NCBI GenBank assembly: GCA_016181005.1
Contig: JACPAE010000004.1
Coordinates: 5,078-69,077 of the forward strand
Reading direction: 5' to 3'
DNA: 64,000 nt
DNA from: Candidatus Aenigmatarchaeota archaeon
Lineage (GTDB): Archaea; Aenigmatarchaeota; Aenigmatarchaeia; CG10238-14; SCSR01
Shown: piece after piece, positions 57,148-62,218 of the stretch
Position numbering within the stretch: position 1 is the stretch's first letter
How the letters are laid out: every line of letters begins with the position of its first letter
The notes under the pieces: generated by a model
Told to the model about the DNA's origin: nothing
The model's input: only the letters and a program-made list of their open reading frames with translations
Databases searched by the model: none
Made by a program: the position numbers and the translations under genes

Positions 57148-57899
57148 TCATTTCGAAGGCTTTCCGCCATCGCCAAGCTTCATGAATCTGCCGTCCTTCT
57201 TTATAACAGCAATGTCGGTCACAATGTCCCTTTTCTCCTTGTCCGATTTCTCAGTCTTGTCGATTATTTCCAAAGCCAAATCAGTGGCCTCCTTTTCGCT
57301 CATGCCGTCCTTCCATTTTTGGTTCAGCAACTTGTTGGCCAATGCCGCGCCTCTTCCTATGGCCTGCGCCCTCCACTCGAACAGCGTGCCCGAAGGATCG
57401 GTCTCAATCAAGTGAACCCCTGACCTGTCCACGCCTCCAAGCAGCATCGACACACCAAAAGGCCTTAAACCGCCATATTGCGTAATCAACTGCATCCTGT
57501 TTCCTATCACCTTGCCGATGTTCCAGACGTCGACAGGCTCGCTATAAGTAAGCTTGTGCATCTGCGCCCTCACCCTTATCATCTGGACCAGAACCCTGGC
57601 GTCAGCTATAAAGCCCGAGGCAACCGCGCCCATATGGTCGTCTACTTGGAATATCTTTTCTGTCGCGTCCGATACGACCAGCTTTCCCGTAGGCTTGACA
57701 GTGGCAAAAACAATGCCATCCTTGAATGTTATTCCTAGTGCTGTGCTGCCTCTCTTGACGGCCTCTTTTGCGTACTCTAACCAGGCGAAAAAGGAAACCC
57801 TTAATTCGCTACCTGGAACAAGCGGCCATCAGGCGAGAATCTACACCAAATAGCTATTACACTATCTGATTACATAGCCATCGTCCGATCATAACCCAT
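57148..57899 (-). CDS. psmA: Proteasome alpha subunit, interrupted by two BHB mini-introns (exons 57899-57872, 57838-57811, 57778-57148; 228 aa after splicing)
   Basis: The spliced product is [47 protein letters not shown]...GAVASGFIADARVL...YGGLRPFGVSMLLGG. Exon lengths 28+28+631 = 687 nt = 229 codons. The colinear reading has a TAA at 57872-57870 and a frame change. Confidence 0.85.
57779..57810 (-). other. psmA intron 2 (32 nt) within a bulge-helix-bulge motif
   Basis: Central helix CCAG (57816-57813) / CUGG (57784-57781). 3-nt bulges GUA (57812-57810) and UUA (57780-57778). Inner helix GCGAA (57809-57805) / UUCGC (57789-57785), plus a distal AAGG/CCUU stem. Confidence 0.8.
57839..57871 (-). 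other. psmA intron 1 (33 nt) within a bulge-helix-bulge motif
   Basis: Central helix CUAU (57877-57874) / GUAG (57844-57841). 3-nt bulges GUA (57873-57871) and AUU (57840-57838). Inner 9-bp hairpin AUCAGAUAG / CUAUUUGGU. The intron removes most (57871-57870) of the in-frame TAA at 57872-57870. Confidence 0.8.
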
Positions 57900-58011
57900 T
57901 TGAATAACAGCCAGCAATTAACTGAACCATTAATATTCCGGCATGATCTCAGGCATCGCATATCACCAATGCACTAAACTTTCTCATTTTTGTTATCACC
58001 TTAATTTATTA

Positions 58012-59004
58012 TTAGAATTTAGTATTAGGGTTTATATTGTTTTTCAATTTCCAATTAACTGTTTCGATAGGTCCTCTTTTGCTTATCACACTCTTTTCTA
58101 CTAGACCTTCTTCGACCAGTTTATGTACATTCTTCCAGATTACATCACGATTTCGATTAACTATTCTACATAAATCTTTAGTTCTTAATACACTACCCAT
58201 TTTTAATGCGTCTAATATTCTCATTTTTGACTCACCCTTTCCATAAGTTTTATAGCTGTTAATGGTTTGCACCAATTTCCCTTTCTTTTTATTGTCAGTA
58301 AAGCCTACGGTTTCTATAAATTTCATAAGATTGTACCGTCCGTATATATTAAACCCTATTGATGTTGAATCATATGGTTGTTTTCTTTCATAAAGCCCAT
58401 TTGGAGATATACCTAAGGAAAGTAGAATTCCTCTTATATCTTCCATAAATTTTTTGTGAGCGTTTAATAGAAAGTTCTTTTTGTTCATACTAAATCCTAT
58501 TACATAATTTCCTTTGCTATTGATGACAGTTCCTTCATCATCGAAAAGTGCCCTGATAAAAGCTGATTTAATGTTAAGAGAACCATTTTTAATCCATTCT
58601 GGTATTGTTAGAGCTTGTTTTACTTTTTCACCTTTCGGAAAACCGCATAAAACTAGGAATCTAGCTACTGTTTTAGGCGGATATATTTCGTAGAACTCTC
58701 GTTCTTTATTAAAATTCCAATTTGGATAAATTCCAAACAAGCCTTTAACTAGCATTCTAAATTCGTCAGCCAAATCCTTACTTTTGTTGGTATAATATAC
58801 ATTTTCTTCCCCTTGTTTAATACAGCCATCACCTAGAACATGTCCTAAAAGTGATGCTATTTTCTCATTAGCCTTAAATGGCATTTCGACATTTATGATA
58901 TACTGACCTCTATGTAACTTTAGGAAGACGATAGTGTCTTCTACTTTAATTACTTTGAAATGTTGTTTCAGTTTCTCCAATGTAATTAATTCTGACATCG
59001 ACAC
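58012..59004 (-). CDS. Free-standing double-motif LAGLIDADG homing-endonuclease-like protein with a C-terminal winged-helix domain
   Basis: LAGLIDADG motifs LLGHVLGDGCI and FIRALFDDEGTV about 100 aa apart. The C-terminal ILDALKMGSVLRTKDLCRIVNRNRDVIWKNVHKLVEEGLVEK resembles a MarR/ArsR wHTH. Visibly AT-richer than the flanking psmA. Confidence 0.75.
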   Translation of the reverse strand: MSMSELITLEKLKQHFKVIKVEDTIVFLKLHRGQYIINVEMPFKANEKIASLLGHVLGDGCIKQGEENVYYTNKSKDLADEFRMLVKGLFGIYPNWNFNKEREFYEIYPPKTVARFLVLCGFPKGEKVKQALTIPEWIKNGSLNIKSAFIRALFDDEGTVINSKGNYVIGFSMNKKNFLLNAHKKFMEDIRGILLSLGISPNGLYERKQPYDSTSIGFNIYGRYNLMKFIETVGFTDNKKKGKLVQTINSYKTYGKGESKMRILDALKMGSVLRTKDLCRIVNRNRDVIWKNVHKLVEEGLVEKSVISKRGPIETVNWKLKNNINPNTKF

Positions 59005-59048
59005 GACTATCCAATGTCTATATATTATAGTAGAACTAGTATATAAAG

Positions 59049-59594
59049 TTATCGGAGGTTCATTTCCTTTTTCCCTTTCAAATAATTTCGTGCAATATAC
59101 AAAGCCGCAATAACTCTGGCTTCTGTCAATTCCTTATTTTCAATAAATTTCTCGAAATCTTCAAAAGGGACTTTTATCAATTCTATTTCTTCGTCCTCAT
59201 CACCTTGTAGTCTACTTTCAACCAGCTTTTGTGCAAGGTAAATATGTGTTTTGTGACGTGTCGACCCTGGAGAAACAATCAAAGTTCCCAATGGGGTCAT
59301 TTTATTTGCCTTGTAACCAATTTCCTCTTGCAATTCTCTATTCGCAGCATCTAAAGGATGTCCGGAATCTACTCTGCCTTTTGGCAGACTAATCTGATAG
59401 TCATCTGTAGCTACAAAATATTCTTTTATTAAAATCAGGTTACCATCATCTGTAATCGGAACAATCATAGCAGAGTCTTTTTTCTCGACTATACTGAATG
59501 TAGCTTCTTTACCTGTTTTAATCTTAAGATCGATTTCTTTTATTCTAAAAATAGGTGTTTTGAAAACTTCTCTTTCTCGAAGTACTTTTCCCAT
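59049..59594 (-). CDS. NUDIX hydrolase (ADP-ribose pyrophosphatase-like)
   Basis: Nudix box GRVDSGHPLDAANRELQEEIGY. Confidence 0.75.
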   Translation of the reverse strand: MGKVLREREVFKTPIFRIKEIDLKIKTGKEATFSIVEKKDSAMIVPITDDGNLILIKEYFVATDDYQISLPKGRVDSGHPLDAANRELQEEIGYKANKMTPLGTLIVSPGSTRHKTHIYLAQKLVESRLQGDEDEEIELIKVPFEDFEKFIENKELTEARVIAALYIARNYLKGKKEMNLR

Positions 59595-59609: not shown

Positions 59610-59966
59610 TTATAAGTTTAACCCCTTAATGGTTCCCGACACCTTTTCAACTTTCACTATCAGTCTGCTCTCACCCAATCTAGACATAAGGCCTAGACCA
59701 GCGACTACTTTCGAAACAGAATCGTTATTGCAGCGTATTATGCCTGTCTGACTTTTACTGTCGTACAGGTTCTTTACAAGCCACAAGGAAAGCTCCGCTG
59801 TTCCAAGCTCACCGTAAAAGTCGAGCAAGGTCTGCCATAAGGCAGCTTCCAGATCTGAATAAGCTACAGGTTCTTCAGAGATTATTCTGAATTTTATGTA
59901 GCGATGCTTTTCCCTTAGCGTTGGCGGCAATATTTTCAACTTGTTTTCTTGTTTCATTTTAACCAT
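59610..59966 (-). CDS. rnp2: RNase P protein component 2 (Pop5/Rnp2)
   Basis: LPPTLREKHRYIKFRIISE...TGIIRCNND...VSGTIKGL. Superoperon context. Confidence 0.75.
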   Translation of the reverse strand: MVKMKQENKLKILPPTLREKHRYIKFRIISEEPVAYSDLEAALWQTLLDFYGELGTAELSLWLVKNLYDSKSQTGIIRCNNDSVSKVVAGLGLMSRLGESRLIVKVEKVSGTIKGLNL

Positions 59967-60733
59967 TTCTTAAACCATTCTAATGTCTCCTTTATTACCT
60001 TTTTCCTGTGCATTTGTGGTACAAAAAGATGGTCGGCATTTTCTATTTTAACGAGTTTTTTAGGTTTGCGTGACGCATTGTACAACCATCTAGAATGTGA
60101 GAATGGGACAGCTAAATCATTATTGCCATGAATAAATAGGATATTTTTCAATTTTCCAACTTCCTTTAAGATGTTATATTTGAAAGTGTCCAAGAATATT
60201 CTGGCAGGTTCTTTATAACCAAACATTAGTTTCGTGGTGTACCCCCTCTCCAAAGATTCTTTTAACCATTCTTCATCCCACCACAATTTCTTATAATCTG
60301 ATACAGTAGCCCATGCAACTACAGCTTTAATGTTGCTGTAGCGTCTGGCAGATAAAATAGCTATAGTACCGCCTTTACTATGCCCTACAATTCCTATTTT
60401 TGATAGGTCAATATTTTTCACGGTTTTCAGAAATTTTAGTGAACTATCAACATCTTCTGACATTGTTTTAATTCTTTGATTTTCAAATTTTCCTTCAGAA
60501 TCTCCACTACCTCTATAATCGAATCTAAATACAGCATAACCATTTCTACAGAATTCTCGTGCCGCATCTACGAAAATGTAAAATGCACCTTCTTTAGAGC
60601 CAAAATAACCATGACACATAATGATTACAGGAGCATTTTTTCGATTAGGTAAATGCAACATCCCAACTATTTGCTTACCATGACTTTTGAAAGTTACAGG
60701 TATTTCTTTCATTTTAACCATTTTTTGAACCAT
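59954..60733 (-). CDS. Alpha/beta-fold hydrolase
   Basis: Nucleophile elbow GHSKGG, HG oxyanion CHGYFG, C-terminal ADH. A tandem paralog of the next gene; both end in KKWLK. Confidence 0.7.
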   Translation of the reverse strand: MVQKMVKMKEIPVTFKSHGKQIVGMLHLPNRKNAPVIIMCHGYFGSKEGAFYIFVDAAREFCRNGYAVFRFDYRGSGDSEGKFENQRIKTMSEDVDSSLKFLKTVKNIDLSKIGIVGHSKGGTIAILSARRYSNIKAVVAWATVSDYKKLWWDEEWLKESLERGYTTKLMFGYKEPARIFLDTFKYNILKEVGKLKNILFIHGNNDLAVPFSHSRWLYNASRKPKKLVKIENADHLFVPQMHRKKVIKETLEWFKKWLK

Positions 60734-61473
60734 TTGATAGTATAGTCTATCAGTGGTTTTTCATATTCATATTTTGAAAAAGTATGATCAGCATTCTTTA
60801 TTATTTTTAGATTATTACTCGGATATAGAAGTTTGCGCATATCTACACCCGTCTTCAAGTTATTTTCCATATCTTTGCTACCGTATATAACAGTCTTGGG
60901 AATCTTTAACGACAAAAGATGTTCAGTTACGTCTGGAAATTTATTTTTAACTTCTTCCCAGAAAGTTTTACCCACAATAAATTCTATCGCCTTCCCATCC
61001 CAAGAAATTGGTGCATATCCTTGCTTTTCTATAGTCTTAATTTTCCTTCCCAATAACATTGTAATGAGTTTTTTAATTGAGATGGAGGGAGCCCATAAAA
61101 CTATTGTAGAAATATATTTCTTATTGACAAGAATTACAACCAATCCTCCTAAACTATGCCCAATTAACCCGATTTTGTTATAACCTTTTTTCTTCATGAA
61201 CTCTATGGCCTTTTCCAAATCGGATACCTCGCCAGAAATTGTCATGTCTCTGAATAAACCATCACTACTTCCGCTTCCTCGAAAATCAAATCTTAGCGTA
61301 GCAAAACCTTCTTTAGCTAAAGACCTTGCACAGTTAACAATTTGCACTTCTCTTTTGTACCCTGTGAACCCATGTGCAATGATCACTGCTTTATCGGTTT
61401 CCTCTTTGGGTATATGTAGAACACCACTTACATTCTCTCCCTTATTTTCGAATGATACATCAATTTCTTTCAT
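60709..61473 (-). CDS. Alpha/beta-fold hydrolase
   Basis: AHGFTG, GHSLGG, NADH. Confidence 0.7.
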   Translation of the reverse strand: MKEIDVSFENKGENVSGVLHIPKEETDKAVIIAHGFTGYKREVQIVNCARSLAKEGFATLRFDFRGSGSSDGLFRDMTISGEVSDLEKAIEFMKKKGYNKIGLIGHSLGGLVVILVNKKYISTIVLWAPSISIKKLITMLLGRKIKTIEKQGYAPISWDGKAIEFIVGKTFWEEVKNKFPDVTEHLLSLKIPKTVIYGSKDMENNLKTGVDMRKLLYPSNNLKIIKNADHTFSKYEYEKPLIDYTIKWFKKWLK

Positions 61474-61784
61474 TCAGTCACTTCCGAAATCCAATTTAAA
61501 TAATCTTTGTTGCCTTTATGGACTTTAAATGAAATCACTTCCGGGATTTTGTAAGGGTGAAGTCGCTTAATTTCCTTCTCCACCTTTTGGTAAAGCTCGC
61601 TTCTTGTTTTTATTATCATCAAAACTTCCGAATGGCTTTGAATCTTCCCTTTCCACCAATACTCGCTTTTAATTACAGGAAGAATGTTAACACACGCAAC
61701 AAGCTTTTCATTTAATAAATGCCGTGAAATTTTCCCAGCAGATTTCAAGTTAGGACATGTAACAAACAAAATACTATACGTCAT
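61470..61784 (-). CDS. cutA: CutA1 divalent-cation tolerance protein
   Basis: LFVTCPNLKSAGKISRHLLNEKLVACVNILPVIKSEYWWKGKI...EVLMIIKT...HPYKIPEV. Confidence 0.85.
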   Translation of the reverse strand: MTYSILFVTCPNLKSAGKISRHLLNEKLVACVNILPVIKSEYWWKGKIQSHSEVLMIIKTRSELYQKVEKEIKRLHPYKIPEVISFKVHKGNKDYLNWISEVTE

Positions 61785-62218
61785 CTTATCAACTTCCCCT
61801 GCAATATTTTTCTTTGTTCAGGAATCATGTTCCTAGGCAGCTTCTTGAAGAATTTCAATTCCTTCCCGGCAGTTCTCGCATTCCCCCACAGTCTTCCGCG
61901 AATGGGTTCGGCCAGAAACACAAGGTTTATTATGTGAGTATACCCTGGTTCCTTATACCTTATGTACTCGAAAACACCGAGAAACTTTTTTATTTTCACC
62001 TCCAATCCAGTCTCTTCCCTAGCTTTTCTTTTTGCGGCATGAAATATCTTCTCCTTGTAAAGAACAGTACCCCCGGGAAAGTGCCATTTTCCCTTGTCCG
62101 GCTTTATAGACCTCTTTATCAGGAGAATGCCTCTCCTATCCTTTATTACAGTATCGACTGTAACTCTTGGAGTTTTCTTAAACACCGTGAGAAATTCCTT
62201 TTTAGACATCATTTTCAT
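61781..62218 (-). CDS. NUDIX hydrolase
   Basis: Nudix box GKWHFPGGTVLYKEKIFHAAKRKAREETGLEV. Confidence 0.75.
   Translation of the reverse strand: MKMMSKKEFLTVFKKTPRVTVDTVIKDRRGILLIKRSIKPDKGKWHFPGGTVLYKEKIFHAAKRKAREETGLEVKIKKFLGVFEYIRYKEPGYTHIINLVFLAEPIRGRLWGNARTAGKELKFFKKLPRNMIPEQRKILQGKLIR

Follow-up and report, generated by a model that had tools for sequence, protein, structure and literature searches.

A free-standing LAGLIDADG endonuclease gene beside the mini-intron-bearing psmA of an Aenigmatarchaeota archaeon: a case for homing at an intron site

A free-standing gene for a LAGLIDADG protein lies directly upstream of psmA, the gene of the proteasome alpha subunit, in the 64,000-nt stretch of DNA analyzed here (the window; contig JACPAE010000004.1, positions 5,078 to 69,077), which comes from G000, a 740-kb groundwater assembly of Aenigmatarchaeota (DPANN). 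Its relatives form four clades, each occurring with a mini-intron at one particular site in the first codons of psmA, without exception. The gene very probably is, or recently was, a mobile homing endonuclease gene, and the recurrent pairing hints at its target: from the comparative evidence, which spans about 130 related loci, we consider it probable that the enzyme cuts intron-free psmA at the site of one mini-intron, intron d, and that this intron shields the genome that carries it. That the enzyme cuts DNA, where exactly it would do so, that the intron confers immunity and is spliced in vivo, and what the winged-helix domain of the protein does are all inferred from comparison.

Results

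Presence of the gene and of psmA introns in related genomes

The psmA loci of 113 species-level Aenigmatarchaeota genomes of the same order were surveyed with a profile of the endonuclease family and an intron-aware alignment of the psmA 5' end, the latter based on a profile of 89 intron-free psmA alleles. For a few loci at the ends of contigs it is not possible to judge whether the gene is absent. Inserts in the psmA 5' end, of bulge-helix-bulge type, were 18-37 nt long except for one of 106 nt. The genomes fall into three groups:

14 genomes: endonuclease gene at psmA; inserts in the psmA 5' end in all 14, at least one each
15 genomes: no endonuclease gene, psmA introns present
84 genomes: no endonuclease gene, no psmA introns

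Inserts in psmA are found in 14 of 14 carriers as against 15 of 99 non-carriers. Twelve of the carriers have the gene directly upstream of psmA, between pop5 and psmA, one (G073) has it upstream of pop5, and one (G083) has only a fragment of 63 amino acids (aa). Where the flanks are readable, nearly every homolog of at least ~35% identity, and several at 30-35%, sits between pop5 and psmA in the host gene string L15e-Rpp30-Pop5-PsmA-SBDS-Rrp4-Rrp41-Rrp42, and more distant homologs lie elsewhere. Within the genus of G000, four genomes carry the gene (G000, G006, G007 and G009) and six do not. A preliminary description of this DNA had reasoned that orthologs at the same position in many lineages would mark a conserved core gene and speak against a mobile element; such orthologs are indeed found there in many lineages, but all these comparisons mark the gene as an insert that is optional, site-specific and passed horizontally, and not as a core gene.

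Four endonuclease clades and four intron sites

The inserts in psmA occupy four sites within its first 22 codons: site a after ..PEY, site b after ..DRT, site c before FSPDG, and site d between LFQV and EYA. In G000, where psmA is a single-copy gene, three of the four are occupied, one more than the two introns of the preliminary description. The endonuclease gene and the parts of psmA concerned are:

58012..59004, minus strand: free-standing LAGLIDADG homing endonuclease gene of clade d (open reading frame, Pfam and AlphaFold2 model)
57933..57956, minus strand: psmA exon 0 (MPEIMPEY), from alignment to intron-free psmA alleles
57900..57932, minus strand: psmA mini-intron a, 33 nt, from intron-aware profile alignment
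57840..57872, minus strand: psmA mini-intron c, 33 nt, from intron-aware profile alignment
57780..57811, minus strand: psmA mini-intron d, 32 nt, between the codons for ..LFQV and EYA, from intron-aware profile alignment
57148..57779, minus strand: last psmA exon, proteasome alpha subunit (Pfam Proteasome, E 1e-34), outside the exchanged tract

In a tree of 32 endonuclease rows (IQ-TREE) there are four clades, and each goes with one psmA intron site:

Clade a: support 100/99 for six genes, joined by that of G026 at 88/92; intron a in 7 of 7 loci
Clade b: support 100/99; intron b in 5 of 5 loci
Clade c: support 94/89, which is moderate; intron c in 7 of 7 loci
Clade d, that of the window: support 100/99; intron d in 8 of 8 intact loci

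Outside the intact clade-d loci, intron d is seen only in L085 and beside the frameshifted clade-d gene of L080. Clade d and intron d have each undergone nine changes on the host tree, and they change together in 9 of 9 independent contrasts (p 0.004); for the presence of any endonuclease against that of any intron in the genome set, about 7 of 10 contrasts go in the same direction and none in the opposite one (p ~0.016). The order on the DNA is endonuclease-a-b-c-d, and clade d always keeps intron d, the farthest of the four, while the nearer introns b and c vary, which argues for more than plain linkage. Introns apart, the exons around site d have the same conserved sequence as intron-free alleles, which leaves the intron as the one visible difference by which its carrier could be protected.

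Horizontal exchange of the gene and its tract

The history of the gene departs from that of its hosts. Its closest homolog (68% identity) is in G051, which belongs to another taxonomic family and whose housekeeping neighbors are only 47-58% identical to those of the window; in the sister genome G006 the neighbors are 82-86% identical, yet the endonuclease homolog only 41%. Near-identical hosts can carry endonucleases of different clades (L077/L083 and L075/L101), or one can have the gene and the other lack it (G089/G088, G102/G105 and G094/G099). Forcing the four genes of the window's genus into a single clade costs 413 log-likelihood units (approximately unbiased test, p 9e-69), so that vertical descent is rejected for the endonuclease tree. 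The G+C content of the gene is 27-35% (41% in G014), below that of the host flanking genes (33-50%) in every locus and independent of host G+C. The ratio of nonsynonymous to synonymous substitution rates (dN/dS) is 0.08-0.25, indicating purifying selection, and 0.14 for the window gene against its homolog in G051.

Comparison of near-identical hosts that carry different clades, or of which one lacks the insertion, as the preliminary description had proposed, does define borders. The exchanged tract runs from the pop5 stop codon to just beyond the intron-d site: in the pairs L077/L083 and L075/L101 DNA identity is ~50% right past the pop5 stop and returns to 95-100% just past the intron-d site, and in the comparison of G089 with G088 the insert starts past pop5, while the sequences cease to diverge within the 5' end of psmA. 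Decayed copies are also found, as a homing cycle of invasion, decay and loss predicts: besides the fragment in G083, the copy in L080 is frameshifted and that in L085 truncated. The suggestion of a mobile homing endonuclease in the preliminary description is well supported by this patchiness within genera, the discordance with the host tree, the AT-rich composition whatever the host and the active site described below, conserved under purifying selection.

At the G008 locus (L043), which has no endonuclease gene and has kept introns b and c, the pop5-psmA spacer is similar to what comes after the endonuclease stop codon in L079; it looks like the footprint of a deleted cassette's right flank.

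An endonuclease fold with a winged helix

The open reading frame (ORF) is intact and, as the preliminary description had it, encodes 330 aa if the GTG at 59004 is the start; the database copy and the alignment of homologs favor ATG 58998, which is probably the start and would give 328 aa. LAGLIDADG_3 (E 2.4e-16) is matched in two stretches, and both motifs align in 23 homologs. A Pfam scan of the protein gave no family besides LAGLIDADG_3, and no intein splicing (Hint) domain was matched. The residues and domain that matter here are:

58828..58830, minus strand: codon of D59, the acidic residue closing LAGLIDADG motif 1 (..LGHVLGDG..), from homolog alignment
58534..58536, minus strand: codon of E157, the acidic residue closing LAGLIDADG motif 2 (..RALFDDEG..), from homolog alignment
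58030..58242, minus strand: C-terminal winged-helix domain, residues ~255-325, from DSSP topology and structural matches

The catalytic acidic residues, whose conservation the preliminary description had singled out for checking, are kept: D59 is invariant in the 23 aligned homologs and in all 14 clade c and d genes compared, and position 157 is E or D in every homolog compared (23 aligned).

An AlphaFold2 model built with 23 homologs has a predicted local distance difference test score (pLDDT) of 89.8. Its residues ~43-255 superpose on the endonuclease of the Tli VMA intein (Z 20.6), PI-PfuI (Z 18.6), I-Tsp061I (Z 16.5), I-DmoI (Z ~15) and the bacterial protein WhiA (Z 16.4), and the model has the pseudo-dimeric alpha-beta-beta-alpha-beta-beta-alpha fold (matches to archaeal LAGLIDADG enzymes, Z 14-21). 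The C-terminal domain runs helix-strand-helix-helix-strand-strand by DSSP, the topology of a winged helix, and residues 255-330 match MarR-family regulators (Z ~11.4; root mean square deviation 1.9-3.0 over ~70 residues), in agreement with the winged helix-turn-helix (HTH) C-terminus proposed earlier. By sequence, HTH_27, MarR_2, HTH_24 and TrmB reach E 0.015-0.09, all short of their curated cut-offs; homologs bear precomputed PF13412 or PF01022, and HTH_5 reaches its cut-off in G006. The C-terminal 83 residues modeled alone gave a pLDDT of 55 and were not used, so that the call rests on the full-length model. As modeled, the protein is a single-chain, two-motif LAGLIDADG endonuclease with a C-terminal winged helix. 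Its best NCBIfam match is an intein-bearing RtcB model.

In clades a and b (L087:1626-2597, L028:6747-7709, L092:3264-4271 and L101:3312-4283) the core is displaced by ~65 residues towards the C-terminus, and there is no C-terminal winged helix; a longer N-terminal extension with faint HTH hints stands in its stead, and the accessory DNA-binding part therefore seems to have been swapped between clades.

Two other kinds of LAGLIDADG gene were considered. An intein is ruled out, as the preliminary description had concluded, by the gene's own start and stop codons between a NUDIX gene and psmA and by LAGLIDADG_3 being the only domain matched. An intron-encoded enzyme, whether of an rRNA, a tRNA or another gene, is likewise ruled out, the ORF lying upstream of the psmA start codon, and never within an exon, in all loci examined; neither a tRNA nor an Rfam family was found at window 54-64 kb or within 5 kb of the gene, in keeping with the earlier remark that no such intron encloses it. 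The idea, also raised in the preliminary description, that the gene is the remnant of a larger intron since shrunk to mini-introns fares no better: it lies wholly upstream of the psmA start, with a TATA-like upstream sequence of its own, and outside the exons in ~30 loci.

The mini-introns of psmA

Intron d has, across ten loci, a fold with a 4-bp helix pairing the exon sequence CCAG with the intron sequence CTGG, two 3-nt bulges (GTA and ATA, the latter TTA in G000) and an inner hairpin. In the alignment 95.7% of cells are paired, as against at most 51% when the partner strand is slid, and compensatory changes occur in six of the eight pairs of the inner hairpin. The outer helix has only 2 bp, which makes the bulge-helix-bulge (BHB) motif a relaxed one. 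Judged by this covariation, intron d is a splicing-type intron with a BHB-like fold, and its excision is predicted. Introns a and c of the window have the same fold and open with in-frame stop codons, so that splicing is needed for full-length PsmA. G000 encodes both EndA and RtcB. The start of psmA is ATG 57956 or 57944, farther upstream than in the preliminary description, which puts the gap to the endonuclease stop at 55-67 nt and not at 113 nt.

Site-a inserts of 18-20 nt, shorter than the usual 30-35 nt, are present in G056, G083, G098, G100, L080 and L101, and G030 has an insert of 106 nt at this site. In G000 itself a match to rtcB (G000:C2:74457-75833, minus strand) is broken by five in-frame stops (one TGA, three TAG and one TAA), which suggests more mini-introns in a protein-coding gene; contig C2, which holds it, has no LAGLIDADG_3 match.

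Discussion

Proposed homing at the intron site, and its alternatives

We propose the following cycle for the window gene. The enzyme would recognize ~20 bp of highly conserved psmA coding sequence at LFQV|EYA of intron-free alleles and make a double-strand break there. Repair from a cassette-bearing copy would then transfer to the recipient the endonuclease gene, the promoter region of psmA and the 5' end of psmA, mini-introns included. In the carrier the 32-nt intron d would split the recognition site in the DNA, leaving the host uncut, and host EndA together with the ligase RtcB would take the intron out of the mRNA, so that psmA still works. The winged helix may provide extra DNA contacts or regulate the cassette. 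It would be tempting to extend this scheme to the whole locus, as the scene of a long-running contest, with four endonuclease lineages each recognizing its own stretch of the near-invariant first 22 psmA codons, each with a BHB mini-intron of its own that splits that stretch, with introns piling up (to at most three per gene) after loss or replacement of the nuclease, and with homing, rather than reverse splicing or chance, as a general route by which tRNA-type introns enter and spread in archaeal protein-coding genes. We rate the chances of this wider hypothesis as about even.

Several points weigh against the proposal or temper it. The contrast test was not significant for clades a, b and c alone. 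The four clades are monophyletic, and the link of each clade with its site could therefore stem from one founding event and subsequent co-conversion. Introns are retained in the 15 genomes without the gene, and so need no endonuclease for their persistence. The sequences of clades a and b indicate that a winged helix is not required for this lifestyle. The host tree was a FastTree tree of four proteins (PsmA, SBDS, Rrp4 and Rrp41); the 16 metagenome loci in the analysis were chosen for carrying the gene, the unbiased census being that of the 113 genome loci only; and the introns of G006 and G009 were placed by eye after the automatic alignment had failed there.

In an alternative account the gene is a mobile homing endonuclease with its target elsewhere, for example in the pop5-psmA spacer, the psmA 5' untranslated region or another part of the first exons, the mini-introns being passengers co-converted within ~250 nt and immunity coming from the insertion or from base changes, as is usual in intronless homing. 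Free-standing endonucleases of phages usually act in this way (PMC6083498; PMC2790892), everything between the pop5 stop and the psmA 5' end is exchanged together, so that linkage alone would yield some association between clades and introns, and the introns do survive without the gene. The passenger account leaves it unexplained why four intron sites should lie within 60 nt and be almost confined to lineages that have, or once had, the gene; why each clade should keep one site, which for clade d is that of the farthest intron; and what else would confer immunity, the exons at site d having the same conserved sequence as those of intron-free alleles and showing no other change of that kind. 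We therefore hold it to be unlikely, and favor cleavage at the intron-d site. A host function is a different matter: the protein could be a domesticated DNA-binding regulator, a LAGLIDADG plus HTH protein in the manner of WhiA, or a splicing helper, controlling psmA or the superoperon, and the preliminary description had named a domesticated regulator or maturase among its readings. The layout and the structural match to WhiA fit this, the 3' end of the gene overlaps the likely psmA promoter with a conserved upstream ORF next to it, and a host function would equally give purifying selection. The strict conservation of the catalytic residues does not fit it, nor does the absence of the gene from 99 of the 113 related genomes, 6 of 10 genus-mates among them, although psmA is kept in every one; the gene tree rejects vertical descent, and clades a and b have no winged helix. 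BHB introns are excised by EndA and need no maturase, on which ground a maturase was rejected. A regulator or splicing helper thus seems to us very improbable.

The window gene might finally be a recent relic that arrived by homing, has lost its nuclease action and is decaying. Decayed relatives exist (the L080 frameshift, the G083 fragment, the truncated copy of L085 and the gene-less footprint in G008), and the terminal branch of G000 is about twice as long as that of G051. Yet the ORF is intact, both catalytic residues are kept, and selection against amino acid change is evident in the comparison with G051. At positions that do not vary in the rest of clade d, G000 alone departs ten times, the other members having 0-12 such departures; at positions invariant across clades c and d it does so once. 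There is accordingly little to recommend decay, to which we assign a small chance, and a homing endonuclease gene with its nuclease action kept is preferred.

Comparison with known systems

The nearest parallel comes from cyanophage S-PM2, where the free-standing endonuclease F-CphI lies beside an intron-containing psbA, an arrangement named collaborative homing (PMC6083498, citing Zeng, Bonocora and Shub 2009). In both systems a stand-alone endonuclease gene adjoins a conserved gene with an ORF-less intron at the presumed target; the intron would protect its carrier and the enzyme would make the intron mobile. The same features recur at psmA, where an optional, horizontally spread gene lies between conserved genes and an ORF-less intron next door is co-inherited with the nuclease. 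The phage system combines an Endo VII-type nuclease with a self-splicing group I intron, whereas here a cellular archaeal chromosome carries a LAGLIDADG enzyme and BHB introns of 30 nt that are spliced by proteins; at psmA, unlike the arrangement described for F-CphI, a single stretch of 60 nt holds four intron sites, each with its own nuclease clade; and cleavage is proven for F-CphI but predicted for the window enzyme. The free-standing seg and mob endonucleases of phage T4, including mobE with I-TevIII, provide examples of intronless and trans homing (PMC2790892). They are similar in being optional nuclease genes between conserved genes that mobilize themselves and their flanks through break repair, with tracts ending near the target, but are GIY-YIG or HNH enzymes of phages, and immunity there is mostly a matter of base changes, not of an intron.

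Among archaeal enzymes, I-DmoI and I-Tsp061I share the two-domain single-chain fold (Z ~15-16.5), both catalytic acidic residues and an archaeal host. They are encoded inside the rRNA BHB intron that they mobilize and have no winged helix, whereas the window gene lies outside the introns, ahead of a protein-coding gene, and encodes extra N- and C-terminal domains. Archaeal intein endonucleases (Tli and Pho VMA, PI-PfuI and PI-PkoII) are the best structural matches (Z 16-21), with alignments to the VMA inteins and PI-PkoII that span model residue 2 to ~326-330; the window gene differs from inteins in matching no Hint domain, in having its own start and stop, and in not being in frame with a host protein. 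WhiA likewise consists of a LAGLIDADG scaffold followed by an HTH DNA-binding domain. It is a nuclease-dead, vertically inherited bacterial transcription factor, whereas the window protein has kept its catalytic residues, is optional and horizontally exchanged, and has an HTH of the MarR winged-helix type; neither the loss of catalytic residues nor the vertical inheritance that mark WhiA is seen in it.

In Crenarchaeota a short BHB intron is known from cbf5 pre-mRNA, and related lineages have gained and lost it (PMC2738675). There, as here, an archaeal protein-coding gene is split by a short BHB intron, and what sets psmA apart is that the presence and position of the intron track an adjoining endonuclease gene. 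We know of no endonuclease gene linked to the cbf5 intron. More generally, BHB introns in archaeal protein-coding genes have, to our knowledge, rarely been reported, and their origin and spread are unsettled.

In a literature search of incomplete coverage no archaeal protein-coding gene came up whose BHB introns are paired with a free-standing LAGLIDADG gene; the search did return collaborative and trans homing in phages, LAGLIDADG enzymes of archaeal rRNA introns and inteins, and the cbf5 intron. The psmA locus ties BHB introns to a testable mechanism at the level of DNA, and with four clades, four sites and many empty, occupied, swapped and decayed alleles in close relatives it constitutes an unusually clean natural experiment. 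If our reading is true, collaborative homing would reach beyond phages and their ribozyme introns to cellular archaea, with introns that proteins splice, and a possible route for tRNA-type introns into archaeal protein genes would be at hand. The locus is, in addition, a source of related single-chain LAGLIDADG enzymes that bear further DNA-binding domains and are presumed to target one of the most highly conserved archaeal coding sequences.

Flanking sequences and minor observations

The G+C fraction is 0.30-0.33 in the endonuclease gene against 0.49-0.53 in psmA and the genes downstream, which agrees with the AT-richer surroundings remarked on earlier, and the AT-rich stretch runs on to ~62.2 kb across other accessory genes. 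The features on either side of the gene are:

59010..59069, minus strand: conserved block of ~59 nt immediately upstream of the endonuclease start, with TATA-like runs
57949..58011, minus strand: spacer from the endonuclease stop to psmA, read from the sequence
57995-58002, minus strand: Shine-Dalgarno-like AAGGTGAT in the spacer, read from the sequence
57949-57987, minus strand: upstream ORF of 12 codons (MRKFSALVICDA) in the spacer, read from the sequence
57962-57967, minus strand: second Shine-Dalgarno-like site, GGTGAT, inside the upstream ORF and ahead of the psmA ATG, read from the sequence

The 59-nt block has 89-97% identity in G006, G007 and G009, even though the endonucleases there are of other clades and only 30-45% identical as proteins, and is present once in G000; the source metagenomes show contig breaks and extra depth at the block. 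It is likely a promoter and the left edge of the cassette, and what is shared between cassettes could be a promoter, an operator or a recombination edge. In contigs of four groundwater runs no clean empty-site allele was found, and joints at 85% likeness probably come from relatives.

On the other side of the gene, the stop of the upstream ORF overlaps the psmA ATG region. Most loci with an endonuclease gene, in each of the four clades, show this layout with a peptide that varies; empty loci have a single Shine-Dalgarno site, and the layout is missing. It may serve translational coupling or re-initiation for psmA. Between G000 and G006 the spacer is 70-85% identical, the endonuclease bodies only 45-66%, and the last endonuclease codons and the psmA spacer are also common to the cassettes of G006 and G009.

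A NUDIX gene (window 59049-59594) lies between pop5 and the endonuclease gene, with no counterpart there in the other loci examined; the conserved block common to G006 and G009 takes in no more of it than the last ~8 codons. In most clade-d loci the endonuclease gene starts 4-133 nt past pop5. The ORFs in the pop5-endonuclease gaps of other loci included no recurrent family except in the pair G006-G007, and none like the window's NUDIX gene, so that there is no conserved cargo gene. Farther out, from Rpp30 to Pop5 (window 59954-62218), are AT-rich accessory genes (two alpha/beta hydrolases, CutA and NUDIX), whose presence varies among genus-mates. A second LAGLIDADG gene is found on the Rpp30 side in G006 (L026:4556-5722) and in the metagenome locus L073 (L073:1495-2508); the two form a clade of their own (100/99), and no intron is visible in the adjoining genes.

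Perfect or near-perfect palindromes of the type CCACTTTCGAAAGTGG are found ~40-70 nt upstream of the endonuclease start in L076, L083 and L161 (G102). In several cassettes of clades c and d from other genera they immediately precede the TATA-like box, and they may act as operators for the winged helix or as hairpins at the end of the pop5 transcript.

Extra copies in the genome had also been suggested as something to look for. G000 has four more small LAGLIDADG ORFs (C5:174169-174957, plus strand; C5:236124-236807, minus strand; C1:166298-166879, minus strand; C1:173959-174684, minus strand) and two of intein size (C1:33587 and C5:177474). One of the small ORFs comes after rpoD in the S13-S4-S11-RpoD cluster, and the two on C1, in ORF-poor, rRNA-like stretches, may encode classical rRNA-intron enzymes.

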